This document shows, one piece after another, positions 11,864 to 59,062 of a stretch of 64,000 nt of DNA. The notes below the pieces were generated by a model that was given only the letters and a program-made list of their open reading frames with translations, was not told the DNA's origin and did no database searches. Each line of letters opens with the position of its first letter. Position 1 is the first letter of the stretch. The stretch is from a phage. The DNA lies in the sequence record PZ295659.1. One strand, given 5' to 3'. A program made the position numbers and the translations under genes.

Positions 11864-11900
11864 TTTATTTCTCCAAATTAGTATTTGTTTTGATAGGTCT

Positions 11901-11929
11901 ATAATATCATGTTTGAAGCACATGTAAAC
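11901..11929 (-). promoter_or_regulatory. Early promoter for motA
   Basis: Minus-strand reading GTTTACA-N17-TATTAT about 40 nt upstream of the motA ATG. Confidence 0.55.
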
Positions 11930-12046: not shown

Positions 12047-13372
12047 TCAAAGTGCCTCCAAGTCTTTAGTGTACTCTGTCACAACATCAGTAGACTTCCA
12101 ATACTCATTTTCTTCTTTCTTAGCTTTAGCTTCTTCTGCTAGTTTACGTGCTTCGTCGGAAGTGATATGGAAGATGTTAAGACCCACCAGTTTATCGACA
12201 TGTTCTTTATACATTTCGATTTGTGCTAGCTCTTCAGTCAAAGCTTTACGAGTCTTGCCTTGAATCACAATTTCACCGTTGATAACTTTTTTGATGAAGT
12301 GTGCCTTAGCAAAAGCCAGTTTAAATGCTTTTTCAGATTCAAGGATTTTGTTGTCAATACGTTTCTGAACGTAAGTCTTACGGACTTCAACAAAATCTTT
12401 GATTAAGTCCACTACGTTATCGTAGACCGCTAATTTACCCTTTTCATTAATCACTGTGATGTTTTGTGAACGACGTTCGATGAGACTAAAATCTTTCATG
12501 ATTTTTTCATGACGTAGCTCTTCATCATCAGGAAGCGAGTACTCTTTACGGAACTTCACCTTAAACCCAAAGCCGTGTTCACCGCAATCATCTTCCCATG
12601 AGATTAGACCTTTGTCTTCCAATGGGTCAAGAACCTTACTCACATACGTTTCACGGTCGAATTTATATGGGATTTCAGTTATCTGCATTTGAGTGCGAGA
12701 TGTGAACTTATATGTTCCGTGAATCTCATAACGCCCATCAACTTCATGTACTTCACCACGGAATTCCGGGAATTCAACTTTTGGCTTAGTGACATTTTTA
12801 CCTTGAAGAGCTTGTAATACAGCCTTTTTGACTGATTTAAAACTATGGGGCAGAATATTTGTTGCGTAACCGGTTGCAATACCAGAGACGCCATTCAAAA
12901 GAACTGTCGGAATAATAGGAAGATAGAATTTTGGTGGAATGTGTTCTTTATCTTCATGAGCTGGAGCATATTCAGTATCTTTATATACGTTATAGAAATT
13001 TTTACTTACACGAGCAAAAATATAACGAGATGCTGCAGCTTTTTGGACTGTTCGAGAACCAAAGTTGCCTTGGCCATCTAACAGTGGATAGTTGTTGTTC
13101 CACGTGTTAGCCATCAATGCACCTGCATCTTGTGCAGAAGATTCACCATGGTGATAACCTAAATCTGCAACACCACCTGCAATTGACGCAAGTTTATGAA
13201 ATTTTTCTTTATTACCACGAGCCAAATCTAACGCACGATGAACCACAAAACGTTGAACCGGCTTAAATCCATCAATCATGTTTGGGATTGCACGGTTTTC
13301 GACGGTGTACATCGCATATGCTAAGGCTTCGTTATCAATAATACTTTTTAGATTACGAGAATTCAATTGCAT
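12047..13372 (-). CDS. 52: DNA topoisomerase II medium subunit gp52 (GyrA-like)
   Basis: 441 aa; MQLNSRNLKSIIDNEALAYAMYTVENRAIPNMIDGFKPVQRF... as in type IIA topoisomerase A subunits; T4 position. Confidence 0.9.
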   Translation of the reverse strand: MQLNSRNLKSIIDNEALAYAMYTVENRAIPNMIDGFKPVQRFVVHRALDLARGNKEKFHKLASIAGGVADLGYHHGESSAQDAGALMANTWNNNYPLLDGQGNFGSRTVQKAAASRYIFARVSKNFYNVYKDTEYAPAHEDKEHIPPKFYLPIIPTVLLNGVSGIATGYATNILPHSFKSVKKAVLQALQGKNVTKPKVEFPEFRGEVHEVDGRYEIHGTYKFTSRTQMQITEIPYKFDRETYVSKVLDPLEDKGLISWEDDCGEHGFGFKVKFRKEYSLPDDEELRHEKIMKDFSLIERRSQNITVINEKGKLAVYDNVVDLIKDFVEVRKTYVQKRIDNKILESEKAFKLAFAKAHFIKKVINGEIVIQGKTRKALTEELAQIEMYKEHVDKLVGLNIFHITSDEARKLAEEAKAKKEENEYWKSTDVVTEYTKDLEAL

Positions 13373-13376
13373 ATTT

Positions 13377-13517
13377 TCACCATATTAATGAACGAATATC
13401 CATTATAACATCTGAAATGAAAAGCACTACTTGGATTAGTCCAAACATCACACCATAGTACAGAACCGTAAGCAACAACAAGAGCCCGAAGGCTCCTGCT
13501 AAGATTTTCTTAATCAT
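13377..13517 (-). CDS. Possible small hydrophobic protein (46 aa); overlaps a UUCG-type hairpin so may not be coding
   Basis: ATG overlaps the upstream stop as TAATG; MIKKILAGAFGLLLLLTVLYYGVMFGLIQVVLF...; region where T4 has ac/stp. Confidence 0.3.
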   Translation of the reverse strand: MIKKILAGAFGLLLLLTVLYYGVMFGLIQVVLFISDVIMDIRSLIW

Positions 13518-13663
13518 TACTCGCCTTTTAATACGTTAAAAAGAGCTAAGACCGCTAAGGTACCTTGTGACACCGCCTGTTGAAATACTGATGTTTCGCC
13601 TGTAACTAAAGTGTTAATGAATAAAAACGACCAACACAACAATGCAATGATCCATGTTACCAT
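13517..13663 (-). CDS. Possible small membrane protein (48 aa)
   Basis: ATG with SD gaggt; MVTWIIALLCWSFLFINTLVTGE...; below the 60-aa cutoff of the six-frame track. Confidence 0.4.
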   Translation of the reverse strand: MVTWIIALLCWSFLFINTLVTGETSVFQQAVSQGTLAVLALFNVLKGE

Positions 13664-13684
13664 TTTAATTACCTCAAAAATAAA

Positions 13685-14131
13685 TTAATAACTCTGCAGA
13701 ATGAATTTGAAATTATCTGCCAGAAGACGGTTCATTTCAGTGAGTGTTTGATATTCTGATGTATGATTGCGAGTGAATGCCAGAGCCAATTGTCCTTTAC
13801 CATAACCAGTAGTCAGGGGTTTCATGTTCTTAGCTGCAACAAAGATTACATCATATTCGATATTGTTAGTGCCCATGGTACGGGCTAGTTGCGAACGGCC
13901 TTGACGAATGTGAGAAAGAATTGCATCCAACCCTTGTTTAGAACGTTGACGTCCTACAAAGAATCGTGCTGCTACTTGACGCCAATCAGATGAACCTTTA
14001 ACAAAGAAGTAAAAACCTTCACGAGAACGAAACTCTTTAGAAACTTCAGAACCGTATTCGCCATTACGAACTACTGCAACAACTTCACCGCCAACTGCCA
14101 GAAGGTCTTTACGAGTTAAATATTTGGACAT
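13685..14131 (-). CDS. ndd: Nucleoid disruption protein Ndd
   Basis: 148 aa; [29 protein letters not shown] and [20 protein letters not shown] resemble remembered T4 Ndd; synteny. Confidence 0.7.
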
Positions 14132-14174
14132 GCTAATTTCCTCAATTGATTAATGTTTTGTAATCCATGAGAGC

Positions 14175-14204
14175 ATTATACTCTGCTCTCAAGAGTTTGT
14201 ACAA
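14175..14204 (-). promoter_or_regulatory. Early promoter for ndd
   Basis: Minus-strand TTGTACA-N17-TATAAT, with the -10 inside a 7-bp inverted repeat (gagagca / tgctctc). Confidence 0.55.
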
Positions 14205-14206
14205 TT

Positions 14207-14407
14207 TTATTCGGCCATATCAGAACGTTCAAAAAGCTCTTCAACAGTTAAACATTCGGTGTCATCCTCAATAAAGAATCGGGTCCAACACGTTGGGGCG
14301 ATGCAGTTATGAGTTTGACCAGCTATAGAAGCTACACGAATAAGCTGCTGGCCATTATTCAGGACAAATTTTTCACCAATTTCAACATCTTTAAAAAGCT
14401 TAGCCAT
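14207..14407 (-). CDS. Hypothetical protein
   Basis: 66-aa ORF with SD gagga and its own early promoter upstream. Confidence 0.5.
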   Translation of the reverse strand: MAKLFKDVEIGEKFVLNNGQQLIRVASIAGQTHNCIAPTCWTRFFIEDDTECLTVEELFERSDMAE

Positions 14408-14435
14408 TTTGTATTCCTCATGTTTTGATAGGACT

Positions 14436-14465
14436 ACTATACCATAATCCTACCTTGATGTAAAC
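14436..14465 (-). promoter_or_regulatory. Early promoter (GTTTACA-N17-TATAGT) for ORF 14207..14407
   Basis: Consensus -35/-10 on the minus strand; -10 lies within the inverted repeat aggatta / taatcct. Confidence 0.55.
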
Positions 14466-14657
14466 AATTAAATTACATTAAAATATGTTAAAGCCAACCA
14501 TGTTCCAGTGAACGAACATGCGATGTAAAAACCCGTATCGCAAATTGTTCTTAGTACAATAAGAAGTGCATTTTTCATAAGTACCTCAATACAATTGAAA
14601 ATATTATACAAATCATAGGGATACTAAGCAACCATATTCCGATCCACATTTTAGAGC

Positions 14658-14921
14658 TCATATCTCAACTTCCGCGAGTTCCATATATCCTTTGTTGATA
14701 ACCTCTTTAAGGTCTTTAGAAAGAATAACATCAAAATGGTCGTTCATATGTCCATTAACCAGACGAGTTATTTCGGCTTCAGATGACATATAAGGCACGT
14801 CTGAGTCCCAATGAGATAGACCTAAATGGGTATAAATCATCCCTTCGTCATCTGCAGTGTTGTACATTGAAACAAATTCGCCTGTTACTTTATGTTTTGC
14901 GTAGAAAAATTTAAATTTCAT
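14658..14921 (-). CDS. Hypothetical protein
   Basis: 87-aa ORF with SD and early promoter. Confidence 0.5.
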   Translation of the reverse strand: MKFKFFYAKHKVTGEFVSMYNTADDEGMIYTHLGLSHWDSDVPYMSSEAEITRLVNGHMNDHFDVILSKDLKEVINKGYMELAEVEI

Positions 14922-14947
14922 GATGTTATCCTCTTTTAGATAGGACT

Positions 14948-14977
14948 ACTATATCATAGTCCTACTTAGTTGTAAAC
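14948..14977 (-). promoter_or_regulatory. Early promoter (GTTTACA-N17-TATAGT) for ORF 14658..14921
   Basis: Consensus elements on the minus strand; -10 embedded in the 8-bp palindrome taggacta / tagtccta. Confidence 0.55.
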
Positions 14978-14989
14978 ACTTTTATGAAA

Positions 14990-15547
14990 TTAAAGATGAA
15001 GATACCACCCGTTGTAGTTGCTCTTGCGGACGATTTTCTTTAGGTCTTCATGGTCTCCCACGAACTTTATAGAATAAGAGAAGACGTCAGGTGAGGTTTC
15101 TTTGACATCTAATATAATAATGCAATCTGCGACTCGATGGTTCAAGAAGGGCCCTATATTGATTCCATTACCACCCGGATAATCACCACTGTATCCTGTG
15201 GTAACCGAAATCCATTTAGAATCTATCTGGTGTGTCTTGACTTCTACACGAATTCCACAATACTTGGGATGGGCTAACACGTCCCATGCATACGTGTACG
15301 GGTCTTCTACGTCTTCAATACCTTTATTAACATATCCGTCTAGCCAATTTGCTACTACATACTCTGCAAAGACCGCAACCTTACAACGTCGAACTACATC
15401 TTCTTTGTTTTGGCCAGGATTTTGGCTCAGGGAATACCGAGCAGTATCAGCGATCTTCACCTTCATTTCACTAGTCAAAAACTCATTCGACAGGATAAAT
15501 GTCGGAAGATTCTTCAGTCTCAACAGTCCCAAGTTCGTCTTTACCAT
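14990..15547 (-). CDS. denB: Hypothetical protein in the position and size range of endonuclease IV (DenB)
   Basis: Start taken at internal ATG 15547 (SD agagg), giving about 185 aa as T4 DenB; assignment by synteny between ndd and rIIB only. Confidence 0.4.
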   Translation of the reverse strand: MVKTNLGLLRLKNLPTFILSNEFLTSEMKVKIADTARYSLSQNPGQNKEDVVRRCKVAVFAEYVVANWLDGYVNKGIEDVEDPYTYAWDVLAHPKYCGIRVEVKTHQIDSKWISVTTGYSGDYPGGNGINIGPFLNHRVADCIIILDVKETSPDVFSYSIKFVGDHEDLKKIVRKSNYNGWYLHL

Positions 15548-15770
15548 AGATACCTCTGATGTGTAGTTCGCCAAAATAAATGCGGTCACCTTCTTCAAGA
15601 TATTCTGCATCTACAGGCGGAATTTCAATAACAACTTCGTCACATTCTAACCAGCCGTAGTGTGCATCACCAGGATGTTTTACCAATTTAGCACAATAAA
15701 CTGATTTACACTTATGATGACCACGAAGATTAGCAATTTTGGATTCTGATACGTCAAATGGATGAATCAT
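15483..15770 (-). CDS. Hypothetical protein (start moved to internal ATG with SD agggg)
   Basis: The first 17 codons of the six-frame ORF overlap the rIIB stop and a terminator hairpin; ATG at 15770 follows the hairpin. Confidence 0.4.
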   Translation of the reverse strand: MIHPFDVSESKIANLRGHHKCKSVYCAKLVKHPGDAHYGWLECDEVVIEIPPVDAEYLEEGDRIYFGELHIRGIYGKDELGTVETEESSDIYPVE

Positions 15771-15789
15771 AATTACCCCTAAAGAAAAA

Positions 15790-15805
15790 GGGGACCGAAG
15801 TCCCC
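15790..15805 (-). terminator. UUCG-tetraloop hairpin (GGGGAC-UUCG-GUCCCC) + U-run after rIIB
   Basis: Plus-strand ggggaccgaagtcccc 5 nt downstream of the rIIB stop; minus transcript ends ...GUCCCCUUUUUCUUU. Confidence 0.6.
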
Positions 15806-15810
15806 AATTA

Positions 15811-16746
15811 TTATTCTGCAAATAATTCAGTAACGTCTGAAATTACTTCATAACGACAAGTACGCATCTTAGCATCACCATAGTCAACTGGGATAGATAC
15901 AACATCACGTGGATGAACTTTAACCTTAACAACTTTATCTGAGCTAGAACCAAAGTAACGAATATATGATTTAGCACAAACATGTAGACCACGGGAACAA
16001 GTTTGTGTATCATCATCGTTAACACGAGTACGAGGCATTGAAACAACTTTACCAGGCGAGTTATCAAATGTGCCGCTATAGCAATCTAAATAGTCCTTAC
16101 GAACTACTTTCCATGCGTAGAAATGTCCGTCTTCAGTGATTTCAATATCATTTGCAACCAAGAAGTCGAATAAACGTTGTACAGCTTTTTCGCTTGGGTT
16201 TTCTAACAGGTTTTCAAGGAACGGCAGATAGAATTTAAAGTCTTCGCCTTTTTCCATGGAATCAATAATACGGTTAACCAGTCCTGAACGAATTTCTATA
16301 CCTTGATAAAATAAACTACCACCTTCAATAGTAACATTACCATCAACAAACTTAGTAATAGCTTTCTTGATGTTAATAAGTTCGACAGCTTTACTAAGGT
16401 TTCCTGCGACCAAATTAGCTTTAATTTCTTCAAAATTTGCATGACTTGATGGGGTCGCATTGTATGCTACGCGTCCTTCAATGATTGAAATAAATTTAGA
16501 TGACGCGTTCCATACGATTTCTGGACGATGACCTGTAATAATAGGTTCATTATTTTCTGGGATCTGTTCTTCGTCTTCAAATTCAGCTGCTTTCTCTTCA
16601 GCTTTAAAATTCTTAACAATCTTACGAAGAGTATCTGTTGAAATGTCAAAGTAATCGGCAATTTCTTTACGGGTCCATTTGCCTGATTTGACCAGGTCGT
16701 AAGCTTCTAACTGTTCTTCTTGGGACAAGCATTTGATATTGTACAT
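15811..16746 (-). CDS. rIIB: rIIB protein
   Basis: 311 aa; MYNIKCLSQEEQ...; size and position as T4 rIIB. Confidence 0.9.
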   Translation of the reverse strand: MYNIKCLSQEEQLEAYDLVKSGKWTRKEIADYFDISTDTLRKIVKNFKAEEKAAEFEDEEQIPENNEPIITGHRPEIVWNASSKFISIIEGRVAYNATPSSHANFEEIKANLVAGNLSKAVELINIKKAITKFVDGNVTIEGGSLFYQGIEIRSGLVNRIIDSMEKGEDFKFYLPFLENLLENPSEKAVQRLFDFLVANDIEITEDGHFYAWKVVRKDYLDCYSGTFDNSPGKVVSMPRTRVNDDDTQTCSRGLHVCAKSYIRYFGSSSDKVVKVKVHPRDVVSIPVDYGDAKMRTCRYEVISDVTELFAE

Positions 16747-16755
16747 AATGTTTCC

Positions 16756-18969
16756 TTATTTGGCCGCTTCCACGGCCTTCATGAATTTAACGATTTGAGC
16801 GACCTGTTCTTTAGAAAGAGTACCACGTCGTCCCATGTATTCTGACACAATATGATAATTGGTTTCAAATTCAATAACCATTTTATCATCATTATCGTAA
16901 GCATTATCTTTAAGCTTATCGAAAATTTTAGCACACAATTCTAACTTCCTGTTTAAGTCTCTGTTATCAGCACCTGCGAATCGATTCCATCCCCAACGAT
17001 TATTTACTGTTGAAAGTTTTGCAAAATCTTTACTGATTTCTTTGTTCTTAGAGCTAAAATACTTACTAAGGAAGTTAAGCTCTTCATTACGAGTAATATG
17101 ATTCAAATAAGGCTGTGCTCTACGACTTGGTGATACATACTCATCATAATCCACTTTATCAATTAGCGTAATATAGTCATTAATTGATTTTTCGAACAAG
17201 CATTCTACTTCACCAAGTTTACGAACTTTCTTAGCAATCTGTGGACGGACTACAGTGAACTCTTTAATACCTGATAAATCGGCAATACGAGTCAAGAAAC
17301 TAGAATCGTAGTTCAACCAACCTTTATTTGCGTCAAGACATTCAGCGTTAGAACGATTACGAATTACAACATAACCTTGGATTTCATCAGCTTTACCGGC
17401 TGGAATAAAGAGATCTTCTGATACCCAAACATCGTTTTCATTCTTAAAGAACCGATGAGCACTCGGTGATTTAGGACGAGGCTGTGATGAACGTTCTTTA
17501 ACTTCAATCCACGGTTTAACTAATGCAAGAATTTCAGAGGTCTTATAGAATTTAAGGCTATCACCAGCGAAAATAACCTTTAATCGTTCTAGAAGTTTCA
17601 TTGCAACTTCATCTTCCGGGTTAATGAATAATACACTACTACCACGTCCGGAAGGAACCTTATCAACGAGTGTTGATGCATCGGCGGAAGCCAAAGCATC
17701 GTTCAGAGCACGCATCATTGGTACGCGGCCTTTCACATCGTCAATAACAATATCAATATGCTTACGACTAATACCTAGCAGGCTATTAATTGAAATAGTT
17801 GCAGACGAGCTTCCGCTTTCACGAATACGACGAAGTCGTGGGTCTGAAACGATATCATATACAACGCCGAGGTTGCACCATTCAGGTCCCATTTTAAAAC
17901 GTTTGTACAACTCAGAATAAGTTAGCTGTTCTTTAGAATATTTCAGTGATTCAATATTAGAACCAGCTTTTTCCATGTATTTACGAGCAGAGTAACCAAG
18001 AGAATCGATTTCACGGAATACATGACGTGGATATTCACAATCAATCCATTTCTTAGAATCTTCAGCAAATAATTTTGCATCGATTTCTGCAACACGTTTA
18101 TGGATATTTGCTACTGTACGTTTATCAAATGACAACGCTTCACGAGACGGGGCTACATCTAGTTCACCCATAGGGAATTTAATATAAGCTGTAGTGCATC
18201 GCGTCATCATCCATGTTTGTTCTTTAATAACACTTCCGATTGGATATACAATACCACCGTAAACAGCCATGATATTACCACGTTCACCCCATGGAGCTTC
18301 CTTGGCTAAATAAACATCATCGAATTCCGGGAAGTATTTGATATCTTTAACACCACGAACTTCTGCAATGTCACCCAGAGGACGCATAACATAAGCAATT
18401 TCGGATGCGAACTTTTCAAAATCTTCTGGGTTAACAGGCACAACTACTTCAACGCCGGTCCGGTCATCAGGGCCCATCTTATCTACGAAGGTTGGCTTAA
18501 TCTGTGGACCTGTGTCATCTTGGTAGATTACGTAACCACGAACTTCACCGTTGTGATAAGACGTAAGGTTAAACGTATCGGTATATGCTAGTGGAGCTTT
18601 AGAGCCGAGTCCGAATCCACCAATGAAATCGTTACTCGATGTTTTAGTTGAAGCAAAATATGAATTATAGATTCCTGGCTCTTCGTCATTACCTCGAATG
18701 GTGAAATCACTCATACCAGGACCAAAGTCTCGAACTACAAAACGTGGGTCTAAACGACCTGGAGCCTGAACAATAAACTTATCAGTGCAACCATTAAGAA
18801 TTTGACCGTCGATACAGTTTGTGATTAATTCACGTACACAAGCCAATTCTTTGTTTGTATAAAGGTCATTAGACAAAATCTTATAAACTTTGCTATTGCC
18901 TTGAATAGTAAATGCTGTGCTCTTACCGCCTGAACCAATAATCGTTTCTTTAGCCGTTTCAATAATCAT
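16756..18969 (-). CDS. rIIA: rIIA protein
   Basis: 737 aa; size and position as T4 rIIA, adjacent to rIIB. Confidence 0.9.
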   Translation of the reverse strand: MIIETAKETIIGSGGKSTAFTIQGNSKVYKILSNDLYTNKELACVRELITNCIDGQILNGCTDKFIVQAPGRLDPRFVVRDFGPGMSDFTIRGNDEEPGIYNSYFASTKTSSNDFIGGFGLGSKAPLAYTDTFNLTSYHNGEVRGYVIYQDDTGPQIKPTFVDKMGPDDRTGVEVVVPVNPEDFEKFASEIAYVMRPLGDIAEVRGVKDIKYFPEFDDVYLAKEAPWGERGNIMAVYGGIVYPIGSVIKEQTWMMTRCTTAYIKFPMGELDVAPSREALSFDKRTVANIHKRVAEIDAKLFAEDSKKWIDCEYPRHVFREIDSLGYSARKYMEKAGSNIESLKYSKEQLTYSELYKRFKMGPEWCNLGVVYDIVSDPRLRRIRESGSSSATISINSLLGISRKHIDIVIDDVKGRVPMMRALNDALASADASTLVDKVPSGRGSSVLFINPEDEVAMKLLERLKVIFAGDSLKFYKTSEILALVKPWIEVKERSSQPRPKSPSAHRFFKNENDVWVSEDLFIPAGKADEIQGYVVIRNRSNAECLDANKGWLNYDSSFLTRIADLSGIKEFTVVRPQIAKKVRKLGEVECLFEKSINDYITLIDKVDYDEYVSPSRRAQPYLNHITRNEELNFLSKYFSSKNKEISKDFAKLSTVNNRWGWNRFAGADNRDLNRKLELCAKIFDKLKDNAYDNDDKMVIEFETNYHIVSEYMGRRGTLSKEQVAQIVKFMKAVEAAK

Positions 18970-20419: not shown

Positions 20420-22235
20420 AGGACATCCATTCTTTACGAAGTTCTGAATCATCACCCAACAACATTTCAAAGAGTTCTTTCCAATTTTCAGGAAGTTTAA
20501 CTACGTCGTACACAGGGTTCTGAATCATTTCACGATATTCTGACTTTTCAAGGGAGCCTAATCCCTTGATGTATCGAATACTATGCTTAGGAAGTGTATC
20601 TTTAGCTTCTTCATACTCAGCTACAGTATAAAACCATTTTTGAGTTTTGCCAATTTGTGCAATAATTACAGGCGTTTTAACAAAGCGAATACGTCCTTGT
20701 TCAAACAATTCAGGCCAATTACTAAAGAAAGCAAGCAAAGCTGGATAAATACTTCCAAGACCGTCATGATCGGCATCGGTCATAATTGCAATATTACGAT
20801 AGTTTGTATTCTCTGCCTTTTCACCAAGAATAAGACCTGTGATAGCACAGATATCAAAGAGCTCTTTATTCTTCATCATATCAGCATATGACATACCCCA
20901 GCTATTCATCACCTTACCACGTAATGGGAATCCGCCGTGTAGTTCACGGTCACGAACATCAATGAGATAACCAATTGCCGAATCACCTTCTGTTAAAAAC
21001 AATGTCGTATCTGCATCTTTACCACATTGGTTAGCTTTAATATGCTTATGAACCTTAGCTTTAGTTGCCTTTTTAGCTGCTTTAGTTTCTGCAGCTTTTT
21101 CTGCCGCCAATTTACGAGCTAATGCTGCTTCAACAATAGGCATAATCAAGGCTTCGTTTTTAAGAAGTGCCTGAGCAATTTTCTTAGCATCTAATTGGAT
21201 ATGATTACGAATATCACCATACGTTGACGTTAAACGTTCTTTAGTCTGAGAATCAAAACGCATGTTGCTCATGTCTCTAATAAACATCAACATTGTGAGA
21301 CATTCTTTAACACGAGCTTTAGTGACTTCAATACCCTTATATTTCTTTTTAATACCTGGCAAAAGATGTTCGCAGATATCATCCATTACACATTCAACAT
21401 GATGACCACCATTTTTAGTATGGATGTTATTCACATAAGTTAAATGACGGAAGCCATCTGGTGATGTTGTGAATGCTATAGAGACTTTATCATTTTCTTG
21501 AATGATGTTATCTTCGCCAAATTGTTTAGCAAATCGTTTAAAATTACCATCAACCTTTTTACCGTTAAATGTGAACTTGATATCAGGATAAACGACTGCC
21601 AATGTTTGAAGTCGGTCTAAAGTAATATCTAAATAAATTTGAGATAAATTATGTTCTTCAAATGAAGAGAAATCAGGAGTGAAGATTACTTTAGTGCCTT
21701 TACCTTTAGATTTCTTAGAAGACCATGATTTGTTTTCCATTCCGTTTGAACAGTTAACAGTGATTTCATTTTCGCCATCTGATGTGATGCCTGTAAACAA
21801 CGTAGAGAAGATATTAGTTAAACTACTCCCGACGCCGTTCATACCACCAGTCTTGCGTTCAGAGTCATCACCAAAGTTACCACCAGCCTTTGGAATAGTC
21901 CAGGCTGCTACAGGACCTGGAATCTGTTCACCATTTTGGTCGGTGACCATTGCTTGAGGAATACCACGTCCGTTATCTTCCACTGAGACTTGATTATTTT
22001 TAATTTGCACATCAATTTTATTTGCAAACTTAAACGATGTACGAATAGCTTCATCAACCGAGTTGTCAATAATCTCATCGATTAATTTAACCAGACCAGG
22101 AACATATTCAACTTGTTGATATTTACCAAACAAAAAACGCTCGTGGGCTTCTTTAGCCGAAGAACCAATATACATACCACTTCGTTTCTTAATATGTTCT
22201 ACATCTGACAGTACCTTAATTTCATTTTTAATCAT
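20418..22235 (-). CDS. 39: DNA topoisomerase II large subunit gp39, uninterrupted GyrB-like form
   Basis: 605 aa continuous ORF MIKNEIKVLSDVEHIKKRSGMYIGS... covering the ATPase and Toprim regions. Confidence 0.9.
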   Translation of the reverse strand: MIKNEIKVLSDVEHIKKRSGMYIGSSAKEAHERFLFGKYQQVEYVPGLVKLIDEIIDNSVDEAIRTSFKFANKIDVQIKNNQVSVEDNGRGIPQAMVTDQNGEQIPGPVAAWTIPKAGGNFGDDSERKTGGMNGVGSSLTNIFSTLFTGITSDGENEITVNCSNGMENKSWSSKKSKGKGTKVIFTPDFSSFEEHNLSQIYLDITLDRLQTLAVVYPDIKFTFNGKKVDGNFKRFAKQFGEDNIIQENDKVSIAFTTSPDGFRHLTYVNNIHTKNGGHHVECVMDDICEHLLPGIKKKYKGIEVTKARVKECLTMLMFIRDMSNMRFDSQTKERLTSTYGDIRNHIQLDAKKIAQALLKNEALIMPIVEAALARKLAAEKAAETKAAKKATKAKVHKHIKANQCGKDADTTLFLTEGDSAIGYLIDVRDRELHGGFPLRGKVMNSWGMSYADMMKNKELFDICAITGLILGEKAENTNYRNIAIMTDADHDGLGSIYPALLAFFSNWPELFEQGRIRFVKTPVIIAQIGKTQKWFYTVAEYEEAKDTLPKHSIRYIKGLGSLEKSEYREMIQNPVYDVVKLPENWKELFEMLLGDDSELRKEWMS

Positions 22236-22284: not shown

Positions 22285-22300
22285 AAGGGCCGAAGCCCTT
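22285..22300 (-). terminator. UUCG-tetraloop hairpin (AAGGGC-UUCG-GCCCUU) + U-run upstream of gp39
   Basis: Plus-strand aagggccgaagccctt between ORF 22299..22724 and gp39. Confidence 0.55.
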
Positions 22301-23546: not shown

Positions 23547-23603
23547 AATATTCTCCTCTTGTTTTGATAGGTCTATAGTATCATAGACCATAGTTGTTGT
23601 ACA

Positions 23604-24128
23604 TCATTTTAGCAAAATAAAATCAACTTGTTCTGCCAATGAACGTCTAAACATTAATTGACAACTTCCGAGGATGAAATCAGGTGCTTCATAGACCGCG
23701 ATGTAGTATCCTTTAGCTTTCAAGAGTTCAACATCCACCTGGTCGTCAAACCATGCATAAACCGCGTCAACACTTTCAAATCCAAAATAGAACCCTTGGG
23801 CCCAATCTTCACTCAATTCAAATGTGTGCCCAATTCTATAGTATCTTAAGATATTTTGTTCAAGGAGTTTATCTTCATTTACTGTAGGACGATTAGGAAC
23901 ATTATAGTTGTCGCCGTGATGGTAGAAGTTACCTGAGATTATTCCATGTTTATCAAGGAACTCCCATGTTTCTTCAGAGTTGTCGGTGCCCGACCAACCG
24001 TATGGCGAACGAGGTTCTTTATTCCAAGAGGTTTCCCAAATTCTGACCGCTTTACCGTCTTCGATAGCAATTCCTGGTAATGATTCACGTTGAGTACAAA
24101 AACTACGTTCTACGCGGTAAACTAACAT
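23604..24128 (-). CDS. Hypothetical protein (start at internal ATG with SD ggaga)
   Basis: About 174 aa after trimming the six-frame ORF 23604..24185. Confidence 0.45.
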   Translation of the reverse strand: MLVYRVERSFCTQRESLPGIAIEDGKAVRIWETSWNKEPRSPYGWSGTDNSEETWEFLDKHGIISGNFYHHGDNYNVPNRPTVNEDKLLEQNILRYYRIGHTFELSEDWAQGFYFGFESVDAVYAWFDDQVDVELLKAKGYYIAVYEAPDFILGSCQLMFRRSLAEQVDFILLK

Positions 24129-24154
24129 ATTATTCTCCTCTGGTTGATATGGGT

Positions 24155-24183
24155 ATAATATCAAAACCAGAGGAGAAGTAAAC
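24155..24183 (-). promoter_or_regulatory. Early promoter (GTTTACT-N16-TATTAT) inside an 11-bp inverted repeat
   Basis: ctcctctggtt...aaccagaggag arms flank the -10 region. Confidence 0.5.
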
Positions 24184-24616: not shown

Positions 24617-25072
24617 TTAAGCTTTACGAGGAGACACATAGCGAGTGATTTCAGATTCTTTAACAACTCGGAAGTCACCTAAGAATACGATATTGTATAA
24701 CTTTTCACCATCTTCAACCCATTGGTCACTAATGAAGCCACACATAGTATCAGTTTTGCTTGGATAACCGTATTCGTCGATGAAGTCAAATTCTTTATCA
24801 GTCTGGAATTCAACACCTTTACACAAGGCCCATTTGAACTGTACATTAGGTTCAGTAGAAGCAGATGGAGCGCTCACACGAGTTTCCAGGAATTTAGGAC
24901 TTACGTAAGCGTACTGAGTATCCTGACGTCCAAAACTAGGAATGATTCGAACTTTAACTTCTTTAATACGTCCCATGCCATTTGTGCGAAGTCCGACAAC
25001 TTCAACCAGACGACCAGCGGCTTTAGACCGGGATGCAGTTGATACACGCTTAATTTCACCAATAGTAATCAT
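24617..25072 (-). CDS. Hypothetical protein, paralog B of a tandem pair
   Basis: Start at internal ATG 25072 aligning with paralog A; shares FKWALC...GFISDQWVEDGEKLYNIVFLGDF. Confidence 0.55.
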   Translation of the reverse strand: MITIGEIKRVSTASRSKAAGRLVEVVGLRTNGMGRIKEVKVRIIPSFGRQDTQYAYVSPKFLETRVSAPSASTEPNVQFKWALCKGVEFQTDKEFDFIDEYGYPSKTDTMCGFISDQWVEDGEKLYNIVFLGDFRVVKESEITRYVSPRKA

Positions 25073-25137
25073 ATTTTTTCTCTCTTTGTTTAAGTTGAAT
25101 TCATTATACTCCATCCATCCTTGGATGTAAACTGTTT

Positions 25138-28245: not shown

Positions 28246-28274
28246 ATAATATCATGCCCTCAGGTAGTGTACAC
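28246..28274 (-). promoter_or_regulatory. Early promoter (GTGTACA-N16-TATTAT)
   Basis: Upstream of ORF 27449..28195. Confidence 0.5.
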
Positions 28275-29015: not shown

Positions 29016-29304
29016 TAAAAATTCAACATTTTCAAATGAATGATTTTGTTAGGTATTCGCGTTCTTGAAGTTCAGATTGACATGTCATGATAGACCTCCA
29101 TTTAAAGATAAGCCTATCATAACACGAGAGGAGGGAATGTAAACTACTTTTTAAGCTTTCCTACTAAAGGTCCATCAGGTCCAGGTTGTTCTAACATGAA
29201 TAAGGATGCTTTAAAAAGCAATGCCAACCCTTTCACCATTCGATACCATGTCTCAAAGTCTTTTTCCTTGATTTCTAGTAAGAATTTCTCTTTAAATTTC
29301 TCTT

Positions 29305-30567: not shown

Positions 30568-30595
30568 ATTGTTCTCCTCTTGAGTAAGTAAGAAT

Positions 30596-30625
30596 ATCTT
30601 AACACAGTTTTTAGCGGTTGTAAAC
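30596..30625 (-). promoter_or_regulatory. Early promoter (GTTTACA-N17-TAAGAT) downstream of the soc terminator
   Basis: Consensus -35 with weaker -10. Confidence 0.4.
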
Positions 30626-30642
30626 TGTAGAAACAAAAAAAA

Positions 30643-30662
30643 AGGAATCCCGAAGGATTCCT
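30643..30662 (-). terminator. UUCG-tetraloop hairpin (AGGAAUCC-UUCG-GGAUUCCU) + U9 after soc
   Basis: 8-bp stem, UUCG loop, nine-U tail on the minus transcript, 8 nt after the soc stop. Confidence 0.7.
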
Positions 30663-30669
30663 TAAATTA

Positions 30670-34451: not shown

Positions 34452-34480
34452 TTTAACTCCTTAGTTGATTTGATAGGACT

Positions 34481-34510
34481 ACTATACTATAGTCCATCTA
34501 TAATGTAAAC
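34481..34510 (-). promoter_or_regulatory. Early promoter (GTTTACA-N17-TATAGT) for sp
   Basis: Consensus elements; -10 inside the aggactac / atagtcc inverted repeat. Confidence 0.55.
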
Positions 34511-34514
34511 AAGT

Positions 34515-35221: not shown

Positions 35222-35251
35222 ATAGTAACACAGTATGCGATGCTTGTAAAC
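35222..35251 (-). promoter_or_regulatory. Early promoter (GTTTACA-N17-TACTAT) for the lipoprotein gene
   Basis: Consensus elements about 30 nt upstream of the ATG. Confidence 0.5.
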
Positions 35252-35659: not shown

Positions 35660-35973
35660 ATTTCCTCGCAAAATGCCCATTCAGCGTGATAAACTGTAGC
35701 ACCTTTAGTATTATTCATTTGAACTACGTCTACCGGAGAAATTACTCGATAGAGACGTGGTTCACCTCCATAAGAGCGTGCTGCTCGTCCTGCATAAATC
35801 TTTGCTAAACCGATATCTTCAGTAAAGAATACACGATCCAAGTTTTTCTTACGTCCAGTTTCAGACAGAACTCCTGTTTCTTCAGGAGGACAAAGTATAT
35901 TTTCGATGTTAGCTGAACTACTTGAACCGTGATAAAAAATCTTAAATTCTGCTTTACAATCGATGGTTTTCAT
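35656..35973 (-). CDS. Hypothetical protein
   Basis: 105-aa ORF with SD and early promoter. Confidence 0.5.
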   Translation of the reverse strand: MKTIDCKAEFKIFYHGSSSSANIENILCPPEETGVLSETGRKKNLDRVFFTEDIGLAKIYAGRAARSYGGEPRLYRVISPVDVVQMNNTKGATVYHAEWAFCEEI

Positions 35974-36002
35974 TTTGTTCTCCTCTTGGTTGGTGTAAGT
36001 AC

Positions 36003-36032
36003 ATCATATCATGCCTAGAGGAAGATGTAAAC
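36003..36032 (-). promoter_or_regulatory. Early promoter (GTTTACA-N17-TATGAT)
   Basis: Immediately downstream of the gp41 terminator hairpin. Confidence 0.5.
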
Positions 36033-36036
36033 CCCG

Positions 36037-36058
36037 AAAGGAGACCGAAGTCTCCTTT
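36037..36058 (-). terminator. UUCG-tetraloop hairpin (GGAGAC-UUCG-GUCUCC) + U-run after gp41
   Basis: Plus-strand aaaggagaccgaagtctccttttt 4 nt after the gp41 stop. Confidence 0.65.
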
Positions 36059-48420: not shown

Positions 48421-48480
48421 TTAATTTCCTTTAGACGAGTTATTGTCTTTTGTTTGTTGATGAACTTATTATACTCCAAA

Positions 48481-48496
48481 TGGGACCGAAGTCCCA
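48481..48496 (-). terminator. UUCG-tetraloop hairpin (UGGGAC-UUCG-GUCCCA) between regA and gp43
   Basis: Plus-strand tgggaccgaagtccca 6 nt after the regA stop, about 60 nt upstream of the gp43 ATG. Confidence 0.55.
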
Positions 48497-56069: not shown

Positions 56070-56610
56070 ATAAAAAATCCAAACTAGGCGAATCGCTAAC
56101 AACTTCCTTCTTTTCAGCCCCAGGAGCTTTATAAGCGGATTCTTCATAATGCGTCATTTTATCGTAGATGTCTTGAATAAACGTTTCATCTACCAACGCT
56201 ACCATATCATCGTCATGACTGTCGTAGACATTATGAACGAAGTAACTATATTTCTTTGCAACTTCCTTACGTTCTTTTTTGATACGTTGGACAAAAGCAT
56301 TAAAACAAGCTCGAGTTATGTATGCATGTGGGTTATTGTACTTAGTTTCGTCGAAATTATGAAGTCCCTTAATAGAGGCTTCAATCCCATCTGCAATCAT
56401 CTCCTGCTTCCAAGACTGGGTATATCCTGAAAAGTTGAAACGTTTGGACAGGCCTTCGGCGATAAGCATAATTGCTAAACCGATGGTATCATTCTGACGA
56501 ATAATTTTGTTTGGGTCTTTATTATTTAAGAGCTCCTTTTTCCACTCGATTATAGCGGCGAGAAGCTCTTTATTATTCACATAGTTATTTTTAGGTTTTT
56601 GTTCAGTCAT
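56053..56610 (-). CDS. 55: Late-transcription sigma factor gp55
   Basis: 185 aa; [28 protein letters not shown]...; size and sequence as remembered for T4 gp55. Confidence 0.9.
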
Positions 56611-56682
56611 AAGTACCTCTTAGCTCAATTCATAGGTCTATTATATCATAATATTTAGAGACCTATCTTAAAGCACGAGATA

Positions 56683-57505: not shown

Positions 57506-57542
57506 ATTATTTTCCTAGGTTATTTTATTATCCAATGAGAGA

Positions 57543-57572
57543 ATTATACTTTGCTCTCAAGAGTTTGTATAC
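57543..57572 (-). promoter_or_regulatory. Early promoter (GTATACA-N17-TATAAT), near-identical copy of the ndd promoter cassette
   Basis: gagaattatactttgctctcaagagtttgtatac vs gagcattatactctgctctcaagagtttgtacaa at 14171..14204. Confidence 0.5.
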
Positions 57573-57811: not shown

Positions 57812-57874
57812 GATATTTTCCTCGTTTTAAGACGATAGGAAGACATGTTATTATCTTCCTATCGTTGTACATTA

Positions 57875-58213: not shown

Positions 58214-58507
58214 TCAACTGTAACGATAACATTCGTTAGCTTTACGTTTGGCTTCAGTATGAGAAGTATTATAATCATAATCTTCTTTACTGTAAACATC
58301 TTTTTTCAACTTACGAACTTCTTTGCGAAGTTGTCGATTCATTTCGTTCTTGACTTCAGAATCAACCCCGCTCATACGCTTCCATTTATCTGAGCGGAAT
58401 ATGTTTTCAACCATGTCTTTGTGGCTAACACCGTCAGGAGCTTTACGTTTACCAAAATAGTCGTAATCACGAACTTTCAAATCTTTACGACGATACGTTT
58501 TACCCAT
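58214..58507 (-). CDS. Hypothetical basic protein
   Basis: Start at internal ATG with SD gaggt; lysine/arginine rich. Confidence 0.45.
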   Translation of the reverse strand: MGKTYRRKDLKVRDYDYFGKRKAPDGVSHKDMVENIFRSDKWKRMSGVDSEVKNEMNRQLRKEVRKLKKDVYSKEDYDYNTSHTEAKRKANECYRYS

Positions 58508-58763: not shown

Positions 58764-59062
58764 GGCTTAATTTCCTTTGCAATTGAACAGAAGATACCAC
58801 GGTCACAAAGCATTTCACCAATTTCTGGATATTTGATTGAACGGTACCAAACATCCAGGCTTGAAACTCTGGTTATCTGTACTGCATTACCGTTGACAGA
58901 ATAGTACTGGTCGACCTTAATTTCTTTATCTTCAATTGTCATTTTATTTTCCTCTATAGTAGATGGCTTAATCTTAACACATCTATTGAGGATGTAAACT
59001 GTTTTATGAAAATATTTTCGATTTGAGAGGGGCACAAGGAGATAGTGAAGTGAAGATTCCAA
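58760..59062 (-). CDS. Hypothetical protein
   Basis: 100-aa ORF. Confidence 0.45.
   Translation of the reverse strand: MESSLHYLLVPLSNRKYFHKTVYILNRCVKIKPSTIEENKMTIEDKEIKVDQYYSVNGNAVQITRVSSLDVWYRSIKYPEIGEMLCDRGIFCSIAKEIKP

Follow-up and report, generated by a model that had tools for sequence, protein, structure and literature searches.

The segment 14408-14989 contains, on its minus strand, two promoter-like sequences whose -10 hexamers lie inside inverted repeats. It raises the question of what such a hairpin does at an early promoter and why the unit recurs. We analysed the whole stretch of DNA from which the segment comes (64,000 nucleotides of record PZ295659.1, hereafter the window), which belongs to an RB69-like phage (Mosigvirus) and is 97-98% identical to PHB12 and phi25-307. 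The window carries 19 sites of this type, which are probably sigma-70-dependent early promoters of an RB69-like T4-type phage, borne on compact cassettes of about 60 bp, roughly half of them with a hairpin.

Predicted early promoters of the window

Nineteen predicted promoters followed by an SD and an ATG were identified on the minus strand; all lie on the early-gene strand. They are named here by the coordinate of the last base of the -10 (e.g. 9404, 28246). The genes downstream are homologues of early genes: asiA, motA, ndd, ndd.1, cef, motB, motB.2, modA, imm, imm.1, sp, mrh.2, 55.2 and 55.6. The sites show the characteristics of T4-type early promoters, i.e. a -35 GTTTAC(A/T), a 17-bp spacing, a -10 of the form TGn + TAnnnT and an A-rich segment near -40, and their position profile gives T-33, C-31, G-14, T-12, A-11, T-7 and A-40. 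The strict pattern GTTTACA-N15-19-TATAVT has 5 matches in the window for 0.11 expected from shuffles. A generic sigma-70 scan was also tried and did not discriminate (64 and 72 matches vs 66.9 and 73.7 in shuffles): the T4-type pattern alone is informative for promoter detection, the generic scan is not.

The 19 sites map one-to-one onto RB69 early promoters predicted in 2006 (Nolan et al., PMC1524935). The counterparts are Pe:160217, 162713 (our motA site), 165022 (ndd), 165283 (14436), 165795 (14948), 6863 (cef), 7443, 8387/8947 (motB), 12088, 12829, 13466 (modB), 14950 (mrh.2), 19020 (sp), 19331, 19761, 20971 (36003), 42515 (55.2), 42816 (the promoter at 57832..57872) and 43945 (55.6). Early-gene context and orthologous conservation in relatives are thus both found. 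A preliminary description of this DNA had listed 11 minus-strand early promoters, and a promoter-like -35/-10 pair is indeed present at 11/11. The sequence GTTTACA-N17-TATAGT/TATAAT that it gave for them occurs at 4/11 sites, the others having GTGTAC, TTGTAC or GTATAC and TATTAT, TACTAT or TATGAT. Its list omitted 58971, 57845, 34792, 30596, 29116, 25103 and 9404, and 23575, which it cited as a repeat sequence, was left off the promoters. The designation as early promoters is supported from sequence by the T4-type early consensus, the early-gene homologues downstream and the RB69 predictions of 2006, from which we infer promoter activity and timing. Rfam gave zero family matches anywhere in the window. 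The T4 RefSeq record has no promoter features, so T4 was scanned afresh; a literature search found no study mapping T4 transcript ends.

Cassette layout and start-site motif

The cassettes can be read in a constant order: the stop codon of the upstream gene with an A-rich element, the GTTTAC -35, the TGn-extended -10, a putative start-site motif C-T-A(+1)-T-C-A-A, the SD and the ATG. They fill whole intergenic gaps. The upstream stop codon lies at most 5 nt from the -35 in 11/19 promoters, and 14 of the 19 have their ATG 55-61 nt from the -35.

TATCAA occupies positions -1 to +5 relative to the predicted start in 8/19 promoters (binomial p about 2e-13), among them 9404, 28986 and 35222; at 28246, TATCAG stands one base later. 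The preliminary description had placed this element 7-10 nt downstream of the -10 in at least seven cassettes. Tested against chance expectation the motif is strongly enriched, but its offset is always 6 nt after the -10 hexamer. Because T4 early promoters also have TATCAA, at the same position, the motif appears to be part of the known T4 early-promoter start-site consensus. "Additional regions of consensus" beyond -35 and -10 have been reported for T4 early promoters (PMC2988021), and a preference for C at -3 to -1 for RB69 early promoters (PMC1524935). The motif had also been suggested to be a shared regulatory element of the initial transcribed region. It would then be separate from the promoter, for example an RNase or protein site, or a sequence that pairs with TGATA of the extended -10 to form a small hairpin. 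Its strong conservation at a fixed position, the exact reverse complementarity of TATCA and TGATA, and helices in the -11:-1 register in 6/240 promoter-like sites are in line with this. We consider it very improbable nevertheless, since the motif straddles the predicted start, is common to T4 early promoters whose extra consensus is known, and persists at 35222, where -13 cannot pair (TGTTA); a stem of 5 A/U-rich base pairs closing a loop of 9 nt would moreover be unstable. As a separate element the motif is therefore unsupported, and we retain the start-site reading.

Hairpins of individual cassettes

In roughly half of the cassettes the two freely variable segments of the promoter are complementary, with a 5' arm in the spacer (about -27 to -16). 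Two designs are seen. In type A the 3' arm covers the discriminator and the start (-8 to +3); the hairpin is tight, its centre is at about -11.5 and its loop holds the -10. In type B the 3' arm is the downstream SD or AUG. All features below are on the minus strand; p values compare the stem with shuffles, and energies and z values are from RNAfold.

The cassette at 14937..14977, upstream of an 87-aa ORF (ATG 14921), has a -35 GTTTAC at 14972-14977, a -10 TATAGT at 14948-14953, a predicted +1 at 14941 and the start motif TATCTA at 14937-14942. The hairpin extends over 14940-14965; its arms are GTAGGACTA and TAGTCCTAT, and its loop contains the -10 (p=0.010; -13.2 kcal/mol, z -2.3). Its RB69 counterpart, Pe:165795, is the top-scoring early promoter of RB69, and 71/71 positions are identical in that phage. 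The second cassette (14425..14465), upstream of an ndd.1 homologue (ATG 14407), has its -35 at 14460-14465, the -10 TATAGT at 14436-14441 and TATCAA at 14425-14430; the hairpin at 14427-14454 pairs GGTAGGATTA with TAGTCCTATC, including one U.G pair (p=0.014; -13.7 kcal/mol, z -3.7). A third member of this family, called the TAGGACTA family, is the early promoter of sp (spackle) at 34470..34510 (-10 TATAGT 34481-34486, TATCAA 34470-34475, hairpin 34472-34498; -11.5 kcal/mol, z -2.0).

The ndd early promoter (14164..14204; -35 TTGTAC 14199-14204, -10 TATAAT 14175-14180) has no TATCAA. Its hairpin, TGAGAGCA / TGCTCTCA, spans 14168-14191 (p=0.010; -14.8 kcal/mol, z -3.9), and the T4 motB promoter is of the same family, with GGGACC/GGTCCC stems. 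The 55.2 early promoter (57532..57572) is a paralogue of the ndd cassette with a degraded stem TGAGAG / CTCTCA (57536-57559; z -0.4). The RB69 orthologue of this site, 57543, reads CGAGAGA / TCTCTCG, a compensatory U-A to C-G change. The cef early promoter (23564..23604; -35 ATGTAC, -10 TACTAT 23575-23580, TATCAA 23564-23569) pairs GGTCTAT with ATAGACC over 23570-23589 (p=0.034; -9.5 kcal/mol). Compared with GGACTA/TAGTCC of the 14948 family, its stem shows a compensatory T-A to A-T swap. The motA early promoter (11890..11929) has only the 3' half (ATGATATTATAGACCTATCAAAACA, 11886-11910) in common with the cef cassette and looks chimeric; since the 5' arm is absent, no hairpin forms across the -10 at 11901 (p=0.17, z -0.7). 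A weak promoter, ATGTAC / TAACAT, at 57832..57872 upstream of a 79-aa ORF has a 14-bp hairpin ACGATAGGAAGATA / TGTCTTCCTATCGT spanning 57832-57865 (p=0.002; -20.1 kcal/mol, z -6.9), which RB69 retains with changes.

Other stems reach the translation signals. The motB.2 early promoter (24133..24183, ATG 24128) has a long hairpin at 24133-24177. Its 5' arm TTCTCCTCTGGTT..GATA is in the spacer, its 3' arm TATC..AACCAGAGGAGAA includes the SD (GAGG 24137-24140), and the predicted +1 (24148) falls between the arms (p=0.002; -23.9 kcal/mol, z -6.6). The RB69 orthologue keeps this long hairpin (-24.4 kcal/mol), and an analogous hairpin masks the SD at the motB.2 promoter of T4, where the flanking pairs differ (-23.7 kcal/mol, z -7.2). 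The 55.6 early promoter (58950..58999, -10 ending at 58971) has an inner hairpin around its -10 and, outside it, a stem UCCUC / GAGGA that masks the SD (58951-58954); it folds at -12.0 kcal/mol, z -3.8, and its RB69 orthologue at -14.8 kcal/mol, z -3.9. In read-through RNA of the modB promoter (29116; 29085..29144, with a modB remnant of 18 aa after it in the window) the -10 and discriminator segment pairs with the SD and AUG over 29085-29122 (-14.4 kcal/mol, z -2.1). The early promoter at 35980..36055 (-10 36003-36008) has a weak TTCCTCT / AGAGGAG stem reaching the SD (z -1.5). A UUCG-loop hairpin, GGAGAC-TTCG-GTCTCC with a TTTC tail (36036-36055), lies directly upstream of its -35. The mrh.2 early promoter (30585..30663, -10 30596-30601) has no hairpin around the -10 (z 0.2) and a canonical terminator directly upstream: AAGGAATCC-TTCG-GGATTCCTT, then T7 (30642-30663). 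The remaining early promoters apart from motB (see below), between 9393 and 35251, show no significant hairpin: 9404 (asiA), 28246, 28986 (modA), 34792 (imm) and 35222 (imm.1).

Hairpin enrichment, geometry and covariation

Compared with shuffled sequences, 6/19 promoters have a significant stem across the -10 (p<0.05; Fisher combined 2e-5), and the RNAfold z is about -2 or lower (-1.97 to -6.87) in 9/19. The hairpins first described are thus real, but inverted repeats of 7-11 bp in "most" promoters was an overstatement: they concern 6-9 of the 19, and about 6/11 of the sites then listed. About half of the promoters have no hairpin, so its role must be optional. The T4 scan gave -10-spanning stems in 9/24 promoters (Fisher 4e-6), with folds of -12 to -24 kcal/mol.

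The position of these stems is remarkably constant. In 240 non-redundant promoter-like sites, helices of at least 6 bp pile up on one axis: registers -15:-8, -16:-7, -17:-6 and -18:-5 together hold 29 helices, for a shuffle expectation of 0.5 at -16:-7 (the register checked) and of no more than 3.4 at any register. At least 12 unrelated stem sequences share this one geometry, with an axis near -11.5. In a sample of 23 promoters fixed only on the -35, TGR-TACTAT and TATCAA, 5 have in their spacer an exact complement of the promoter's own -6 to -2 segment, against an average of 0.62 under permutation; 0/2000 permutations reach 5. In an alignment of 33 sequences, 8/9 pairs change on both sides and the covariation score is 0.74, vs 0.32 when shuffled and at most 0.30 in slid registers; these sequences were picked for pairing in the tested register, which biases the percentage of paired cells. 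To this is added the compensatory change between the orthologous window and RB69 sites at 57543. A search for loci related to the 87-aa ORF returned only 3 near-identical ones, too few for orthologue covariation, and the exact 15-mer TATAGTAGTCCTATC gave mostly chance matches in IMG/VR, about 9/47 loci being real cassettes.

Such stems could also have no function and simply result from templated (quasi-palindrome) mutation, together with gene conversion between the repeats of a highly recombinogenic phage. Quasi-palindrome correction is well documented in T4 and can make "compensatory" changes in one step, half of the promoters do without a hairpin, and decay is visible in some of those that exist (57543, the 11901 chimera). 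What makes this origin hardly likely is the same axis adopted by many independent stem sequences across genera, the strong hairpins kept at orthologous T4 and Mosigvirus promoters despite differing sequence (motB.2), and the large enrichment over shuffles.

Repeat families and recombination between cassettes

The preliminary description had reported three cassettes recurring as repeats, and this is borne out: 14425-14465, 14934-14978 and 34466-34511 have 74-80% identity over 50 nt, for a median of 46% between promoters. The 14436 and 14948 members form a direct repeat 512 bp apart with 80% identity, and the sp member has 74-78% identity to both. The 14175 and 57543 cassettes constitute another family, 82% identical, absent from that description. 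Its "nearly identical" pair is a real match whose second range was out of register: 11886-11910 corresponds to 23560-23584 (24/25, 96%), and the match covers only the 3' half of the cassette. In an independent repeat search of the region, the highest-ranked families of direct repeats are these cassettes. They cluster in small-ORF regions (ndd-denB, motB, imm/sp, 55.x), and cassettes of one family precede different genes in different phages. Since they are repeated and conserved, they most likely also serve as crossover sites to add, remove or swap small early genes.

One such event is visible at motB. RB69 has 558 bp (ORF012 + motB.1) between two cassette copies, Pe:8387 and Pe:8947, where the window has a single cassette (25066..25132). 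The alignment pieces overlap by 67 nt at the junction, with 491 extra nt in RB69, and a three-way alignment shows the window cassette to be a chimera of the two RB69 copies. The cassette pair explains the 558-bp difference in gene content. It is the only clean cassette-to-cassette event among 5 differences between the window and RB69; at 36003 the difference is a 414-nt indel whose junctions overlap by 15 nt at the SD/ATG. The homology to T4 breaks off at 14971, within the -35 of the 14948 cassette. The 512-bp unit between 14436 and 14948 is covered in 153/153 close relatives, no Mosigvirus genome was found to be without it, and RB69 has the same arrangement of this segment.

Recombination also bears on whether the inverted repeats act in DNA, as a cruciform or hairpin substrate or as a binding site for a recombination or regulatory protein; in one version, a structure-sensing factor would shut off early promoters. 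Crossovers do map to the cassette core (window vs RB69; PMC2839356), the authors of the latter work speculated on a DNA-binding recombination protein, and the shut-off of early promoters is incompletely understood (PMC2988021, PMC3014915). Wobble pairs do not settle the matter in favour of RNA. As an arbiter between RNA and DNA, the asymmetry of G.U over A.C pairs was rejected: the raw excess (42 vs 21; shuffles 132 vs 126) is lost after de-duplication and composition control (22 vs 14, p=0.33), and further tests under the same controls are not significant (11 vs 2, p=0.28; 63 vs 53, p=0.20). Action in DNA nevertheless seems improbable to us. At least 12 unrelated stems with the same geometry exclude a sequence-specific binder, stems of 6-10 bp with 6-8-nt loops are poor cruciform formers, the arms of type B contain the SD, an RNA-level signal, and repeats of 40-67 bp recombine homologously without special structure.

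Possible termination, attenuation or masking

We infer an action in RNA. The predicted start lies inside or after the 3' arm in type A and between the arms in type B, and therefore only read-through RNA would fold the hairpin; RNA begun at the cassette's own promoter would be without the 5' arm.

The preliminary description had proposed combined terminator-promoter units, which matches the published interpretation of such cassettes. In this case the -10-embedded hairpins would be true intrinsic terminators, and each cassette would end every upstream transcript and start a new one. One RB49 stem-loop did cut lacZ read-through as strongly as rrnB T1 (PMC2839356), the hairpins are stable (-9.5 to -20 kcal/mol), and a canonical UUCG-loop hairpin ending in a T-rich tail immediately precedes both 30596 and 36003. 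These two are the only ones of the 19 promoters with such a hairpin directly upstream of the -35. We regard true termination at the -10 hairpins as unlikely. Intrinsic terminators require a GC-rich stem, a short loop and an immediate U-tract; like them, the type A hairpins would be stable nascent-RNA hairpins between two same-strand genes, but they have loops of 6-8 nt and no U-tract, their tails being A-rich (TCAAAAC, TCTAAAAG or TGGATTAC). A terminator scan of the sense strand calls none of them, and the RB49 stem-loops that were tested have polyG/polyC stems, unlike those of the window. Only the separate hairpin 30642-30663 has all these features, 36036-36055 having a short TTTC tail, and the canonical terminators of the window (e.g. 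30642-30663, 15790-15805, 22285-22300) look unlike type A hairpins.

For type A, the most likely effect would be attenuation or insulation of read-through, or protection of the 3' end of the upstream message, in keeping with how such cassettes have been interpreted in print. For type B it would most likely be silencing of the gene's translation on read-through transcripts. The SD or AUG is within the stem at 24155, 58971, 29116 and, weakly, 36003, and stems including these signals are found in T4 at motB.2, ndd.4, rnlA and 30.8; in each the helix has its 5' arm upstream of the predicted internal start, as in gene e. Anti-SD 4-mers are present in 4/19 window spacers for 4.9% expected (p=0.012), a modest enrichment, which is not significant in T4 spacers. 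It is conceivable, although rather doubtful, that a sizeable minority of early promoters in T4-type phages, T4 included, carry an "own-promoter-only" code. If true, a hairpin on the -10 axis or reaching the SD would make read-through RNA inert (attenuated or untranslatable), and expression of the gene would be limited to the time during which its own early promoter is active. These phages would then have a general means of immediate-early confinement, which exceeds the published view of the cassettes as terminators and recombination sites.

Comparison with known systems

The window cassettes match the published promoter-early stem-loop (PeSL) cassettes of T4-type phages (Arbiol et al. 2010, PMC2839356; Comeau et al. 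2014, PMC4122927). Both combine a strong early promoter of sigma-70 type, AT-rich in its upstream region, with a stem-loop and, at the 3' end, an SD and ATG, and both are repeated in the intergenic gaps of small-ORF-rich regions. Stem-loops between -35 and -10, or overlapping the -10, are among the five PeSL subclasses, and PeSL crossovers, which fall in the loop or the -10, cause genes to be inserted or deleted, with the ndd-denB region as a published example (PMC2839356). In the window, promoter, stem-loop and 3' SD/ATG occur together in 9/19 cases by RNAfold z, two more have the upstream UUCG-loop hairpin, and the remaining 8 or so are plain promoters. Repetition in gaps of small or variable ORFs (families 74-82% identical) is also found, as is cassette recombination with gene gain or loss (the 558-bp ORF012 + motB.1, the homology break at 14971). 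There are differences. PeSLs were published for RB49/phi1, PST/T4 and nt-1/KVP40, RB69 being absent from the 2010 paper. The PST/T4 stem-loop was placed by its authors just upstream of the promoter, whereas the dominant design in the window, and in T4 by the present scan, is centred on the -10 at about -11.5. Window stems are of mixed sequence, not polyG/polyC. Termination or attenuation was shown experimentally for one RB49 stem-loop only (PMC2839356). The 2010 paper does not discuss SD masking: the word "translation" is absent from it, as is any term for masking or sequestering.

As promoters, the cassettes resemble the T4-type early promoters of T4 (Pe) and RB69 (Nolan et al. 2006), with GTTTAC, a TGn-extended -10, an A-rich upstream element and conserved bases around +1. 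Nothing essential separates them from the RB69 predictions (PMC1524935); in that paper the words "hairpin", "stem-loop" and "inverted repeat" are absent, and the repeat families are not described. Type B is closest to the RBS-masking leader hairpins with an internal promoter of T4 e, soc, 49 and I-TevI (PMC3014915). In both, the SD/AUG pairs with an upstream segment and the promoter is inside the hairpin; internal-promoter transcripts without the 5' arm are translatable and longer ones silent, as predicted for the window. The known cases use late promoters to delay expression, whereas the internal promoter here is early (24155, 58971, 29116, 36003; T4 motB.2, ndd.4, rnlA, 30.8), which would confine translation to the period of early-promoter firing.

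With promoters predicted in RB69 in 2006 and a cassette concept published in 2010 and 2014, little is new for the window. Of some value is that the RB69 group can be added to the phages with PeSL-type cassettes, together with a concrete case of genes gained or lost through cassettes (motB.1, ORF012). So is the finding that the hairpins sit on one fixed -10 axis, covary, occur in T4 too and have as arms exactly the two freely variable promoter segments. Finally, the analysis points to early-promoter versions of the gene e-type RBS mask, which could help explain how some early genes are switched off at early-promoter shutdown, a step that reviews describe as incompletely understood.

Predicted early promoters

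The region 13000-17000 is 97-98% identical to Escherichia phages PHB12 and NHEP10 and to Shigella phage phi25-307, relatives which belong to the genus Mosigvirus (RB69 group). Past about 9.4 kb the minus strand holds most genes of the rest of the window, among them every early gene treated here. The cassettes, promoter units of about 60 bp that end with SD and ATG, were first noted amid the small ORFs of the denB-ndd stretch. The preliminary description gave eleven sites as GTTTACA-N17-TATAGT/TATAAT; a minus-strand -35/-10 pair is indeed present at all eleven, but the hexamers are not uniform (-35: GTTTAC, GTGTAC, TTGTAC, GTATAC; -10: TATAGT, TATAAT, TATTAT, TACTAT, TATGAT). A strict T4-type pattern matched 5 times for 0.11 expected, and a looser scan requiring SD and ATG downstream yielded 19 promoters, all on the minus strand. 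A generic sigma-70 scan did no better than shuffles, the enrichment being limited to the T4-type signature.

These 19 sites, named below by the last base of the -10, correspond one-to-one to RB69 early promoters (Nolan et al. 2006 supplement, PMC1524935): the 14948 cassette is Pe:165795, the top-scoring RB69 site, and the 14436 cassette is Pe:165283. Downstream genes are homologues of T4 asiA, motA, ndd, ndd.1, cef, motB, motB.2, modA, imm, imm.1, sp, mrh.2, 55.2 and 55.6; three further downstream ORFs matched nothing in the T4 regions under comparison. Signature, RB69 counterparts and downstream homologues together support their prediction as early promoters.

Another perfect GTTTACA-N17-TATAAT match, at 58268-58297 (-), corresponds to RB69 Pe:43242; it has no visible SD/ATG within about 40 nt downstream, and could have arisen by chance or serve as an internal promoter. 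In IMG/VR, GTTTACA-N17-TAnnnT-N5-TATCAA followed by SD and start codon recurs in numerous viral contigs whose size is not evidently that of T4 (L007-L126), SD and start lying downstream in 92 of 127 pattern matches; some loci (e.g. L070, L121, L093) carry instead a G/C hairpin with a T-run around the -35. Judged from these sequences, the combination of T4-type early promoter and start motif seems to be widely distributed.

The TATCAA start motif

TATCAA was said to recur 7 to 10 nt past the -10. The recurrence is clear, at an offset of exactly 6 nt in 8/19 promoters (p ~2e-13, well above expectation), and TATC occupies the same offset in 12/19. If the start lies, as usual, 7 nt from the -10, TATCAA covers -1 to +5, so the predicted transcript would start with AUCAA. 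The suggestion of a shared regulatory element was not upheld: since CTATCAA(C/A) occupies this position in the early promoters of T4, for which further consensus stretches have been reported (Hinton review, PMC2988021), and since a C at -3 to -1 has been noted in those of RB69 (Nolan et al., PMC1524935), TATCAA is part of the known promoter/start-site consensus and not a separate element. TATCA (-1 to +4) and the extended -10 TGATA (-15 to -11) are also exact reverse complements, and helices pairing the two occur at 6 of 240 non-redundant sites. This could reflect weak pairing; as TATCAA is kept where such pairing is impossible, we treat the complementarity as coincidence.

Repeat families and recombination

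The repeat families proposed earlier are well supported: the 14948, 14436 and 34481 cassettes show 74-80% mutual identity, and the 14175 and 57543 cassettes 82%, for a median of 46% between promoters, and an unguided search of 51 kb (9000-60000) returned these cassettes as the top direct repeats. The near-identity claimed for the 11901 and 23575 cassettes holds for their 3' half only (24/25 identical), and 11901 therefore looks chimeric. Families are not bound to position, the T4 motB promoter belonging with the ndd and 55.2 promoters of the window; its stem GGGACC/GGTCCC replaces GAGAGC/GCTCTC.

One difference from RB69 is the absence of 558 bp (ORF012 and motB.1) in the window. RB69 has the 25103 cassette twice, once on either side of this unit; in the window there is a single, chimeric cassette, its crossover point lying in the spacer or -10. 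A 414-nt indel adjoins 36003, with a 15-nt overlap at SD/ATG: RB69 ORF041c (414 nt, RB69 20480-20893) is absent, and the 15-nt repeat at the junction (35969-35983) suggests a deletion between two similar translation-initiation regions. Cassettes do not account for the other three differences, among them a 503-nt internal deletion of modB (29045-29144, minus strand) with a 5-nt junction overlap (29045-29049); the modB promoter 29116 now drives an 18-aa remnant ORF (ATG 29088), and the phage appears to lack a functional ModB ADP-ribosyltransferase. T4 homology stops at 14971, within the -35; the 14436-14948 unit is kept in RB69 and in 153/153 close relatives.

Hairpins at the -10

Inverted repeats around the -10 are present, though not "in most" promoters as first described: a -10-spanning stem beats shuffles in 6/19 (Fisher combined 2e-5), RNAfold z is about -2 or lower (-1.97 to -6.87) in 9/19, and 8 of the 19 have no significant hairpin. 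Type A hairpins, tight stems with a 5' arm at about -25 to -16 and a 3' arm at -8 to +3, were found on the minus strand at 57845 (-20.1 kcal/mol), 14175 (-14.8), 14436 (-13.7), 14948 (-13.2), 34481 (-11.5) and 23575 (-9.5). Type B hairpins, in which SD or AUG forms the 3' arm, occur on the same strand at 24155 (-23.9 kcal/mol), 29116 (-14.4), 58971 (-12.0) and, weakly, 36003. None of the type A hairpins of the window is followed by a U-tract; a canonical UUCG-loop hairpin with T-rich tail lies directly upstream of the -35 at 30596 and 36003 only. The presence of the SD in type B arms argues for action at the RNA level. For type A, raw counts favour tolerance of G.U over A.C on the sense strand (42 vs 21), but the effect loses significance once duplicates are removed and composition is controlled for.

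T4 behaves similarly, with significant stems in 9/24 early promoters (Fisher 4e-6) and folds of -12 to -24 kcal/mol; type A hairpins were found at dmd, motB, cd.3, frd.1 and cef, and type B masks are predicted at motB.2, ndd.4, rnlA and 30.8. Among 240 non-redundant promoter-like sites helices share one axis, registers -15:-8 to -18:-5 holding 29; shuffles gave 0.5 helices for -16:-7 (one register checked), with no register above 3.4. In 23 promoters sampled without reference to hairpin arms, the spacer of five contains a perfect complement to segment -6 to -2 of the same promoter, with five different stem sequences (permutation mean 0.62; 0/2000 reach 5). A 33-sequence alignment shows both-side changes in 8/9 pairs and a covariation score of 0.74 vs 0.32 shuffled and <=0.30 slid; these sequences were picked for pairing, which biases the percentage paired. 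In the 57543 stem, a U-A pair of the window is matched by C-G in RB69, a compensatory change.

In 11/19 promoters the stop codon of the upstream gene is <=5 nt from the -35, and in 14/19 the span from -35 to ATG measures 55-61 nt; the cassette is the entire intergenic gap. Spacer and discriminator would then be the only promoter segments free to vary, and a hairpin of smallest loop would have to close around TGn and the -10; we infer that the observed axis at the -10 follows from this freedom.

At two other sites a hairpin is combined with promoter-like elements. Upstream of gene 55 (~56610-56680, minus strand), a hairpin ATAGGTCT...AGACCTAT surrounds a TATAAT box, with no GTTTAC -35 and a MotA-box-like GTGCTTTAA upstream; it shows the same hairpin-around--10 design at a probable middle promoter, much like the "PmSL" described in phage nt-1. 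Upstream of gene 43 (~48440-48490, minus strand), a canonical terminator GGGAC-TTCG-GTCCC, then ATTT, occupies the -35 position and is directly followed by TGGAGTATAAT, the terminator being fused to an extended -10 element.

Comparison with known cassettes

Arbiol et al. 2010 (PMC2839356) described PeSLs as early promoter, stem-loop, SD and ATG. The stem-loop may take five positions, among them the interval from -35 to -10 and an overlap with the -10; a read-through block was shown for one stem-loop, and crossovers fall in the loop or -10. RB69 is unmentioned in that paper, as are the words translation, masking or sequestering. Comeau et al. 2014 (PMC4122927) extended PeSLs to PST/T4 and nt-1/KVP40 and discussed the ndd region. 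Masking of the RBS with an internal promoter is known for e, soc, 49 and I-TevI, which use late promoters (PMC3014915). The promoter, repeat and hairpin features of the window are real and beyond chance, but ordinary for this phage group: its cassettes belong to a known kind, in which the type A hairpins may have a function and the RBS masks at early promoters are putative.
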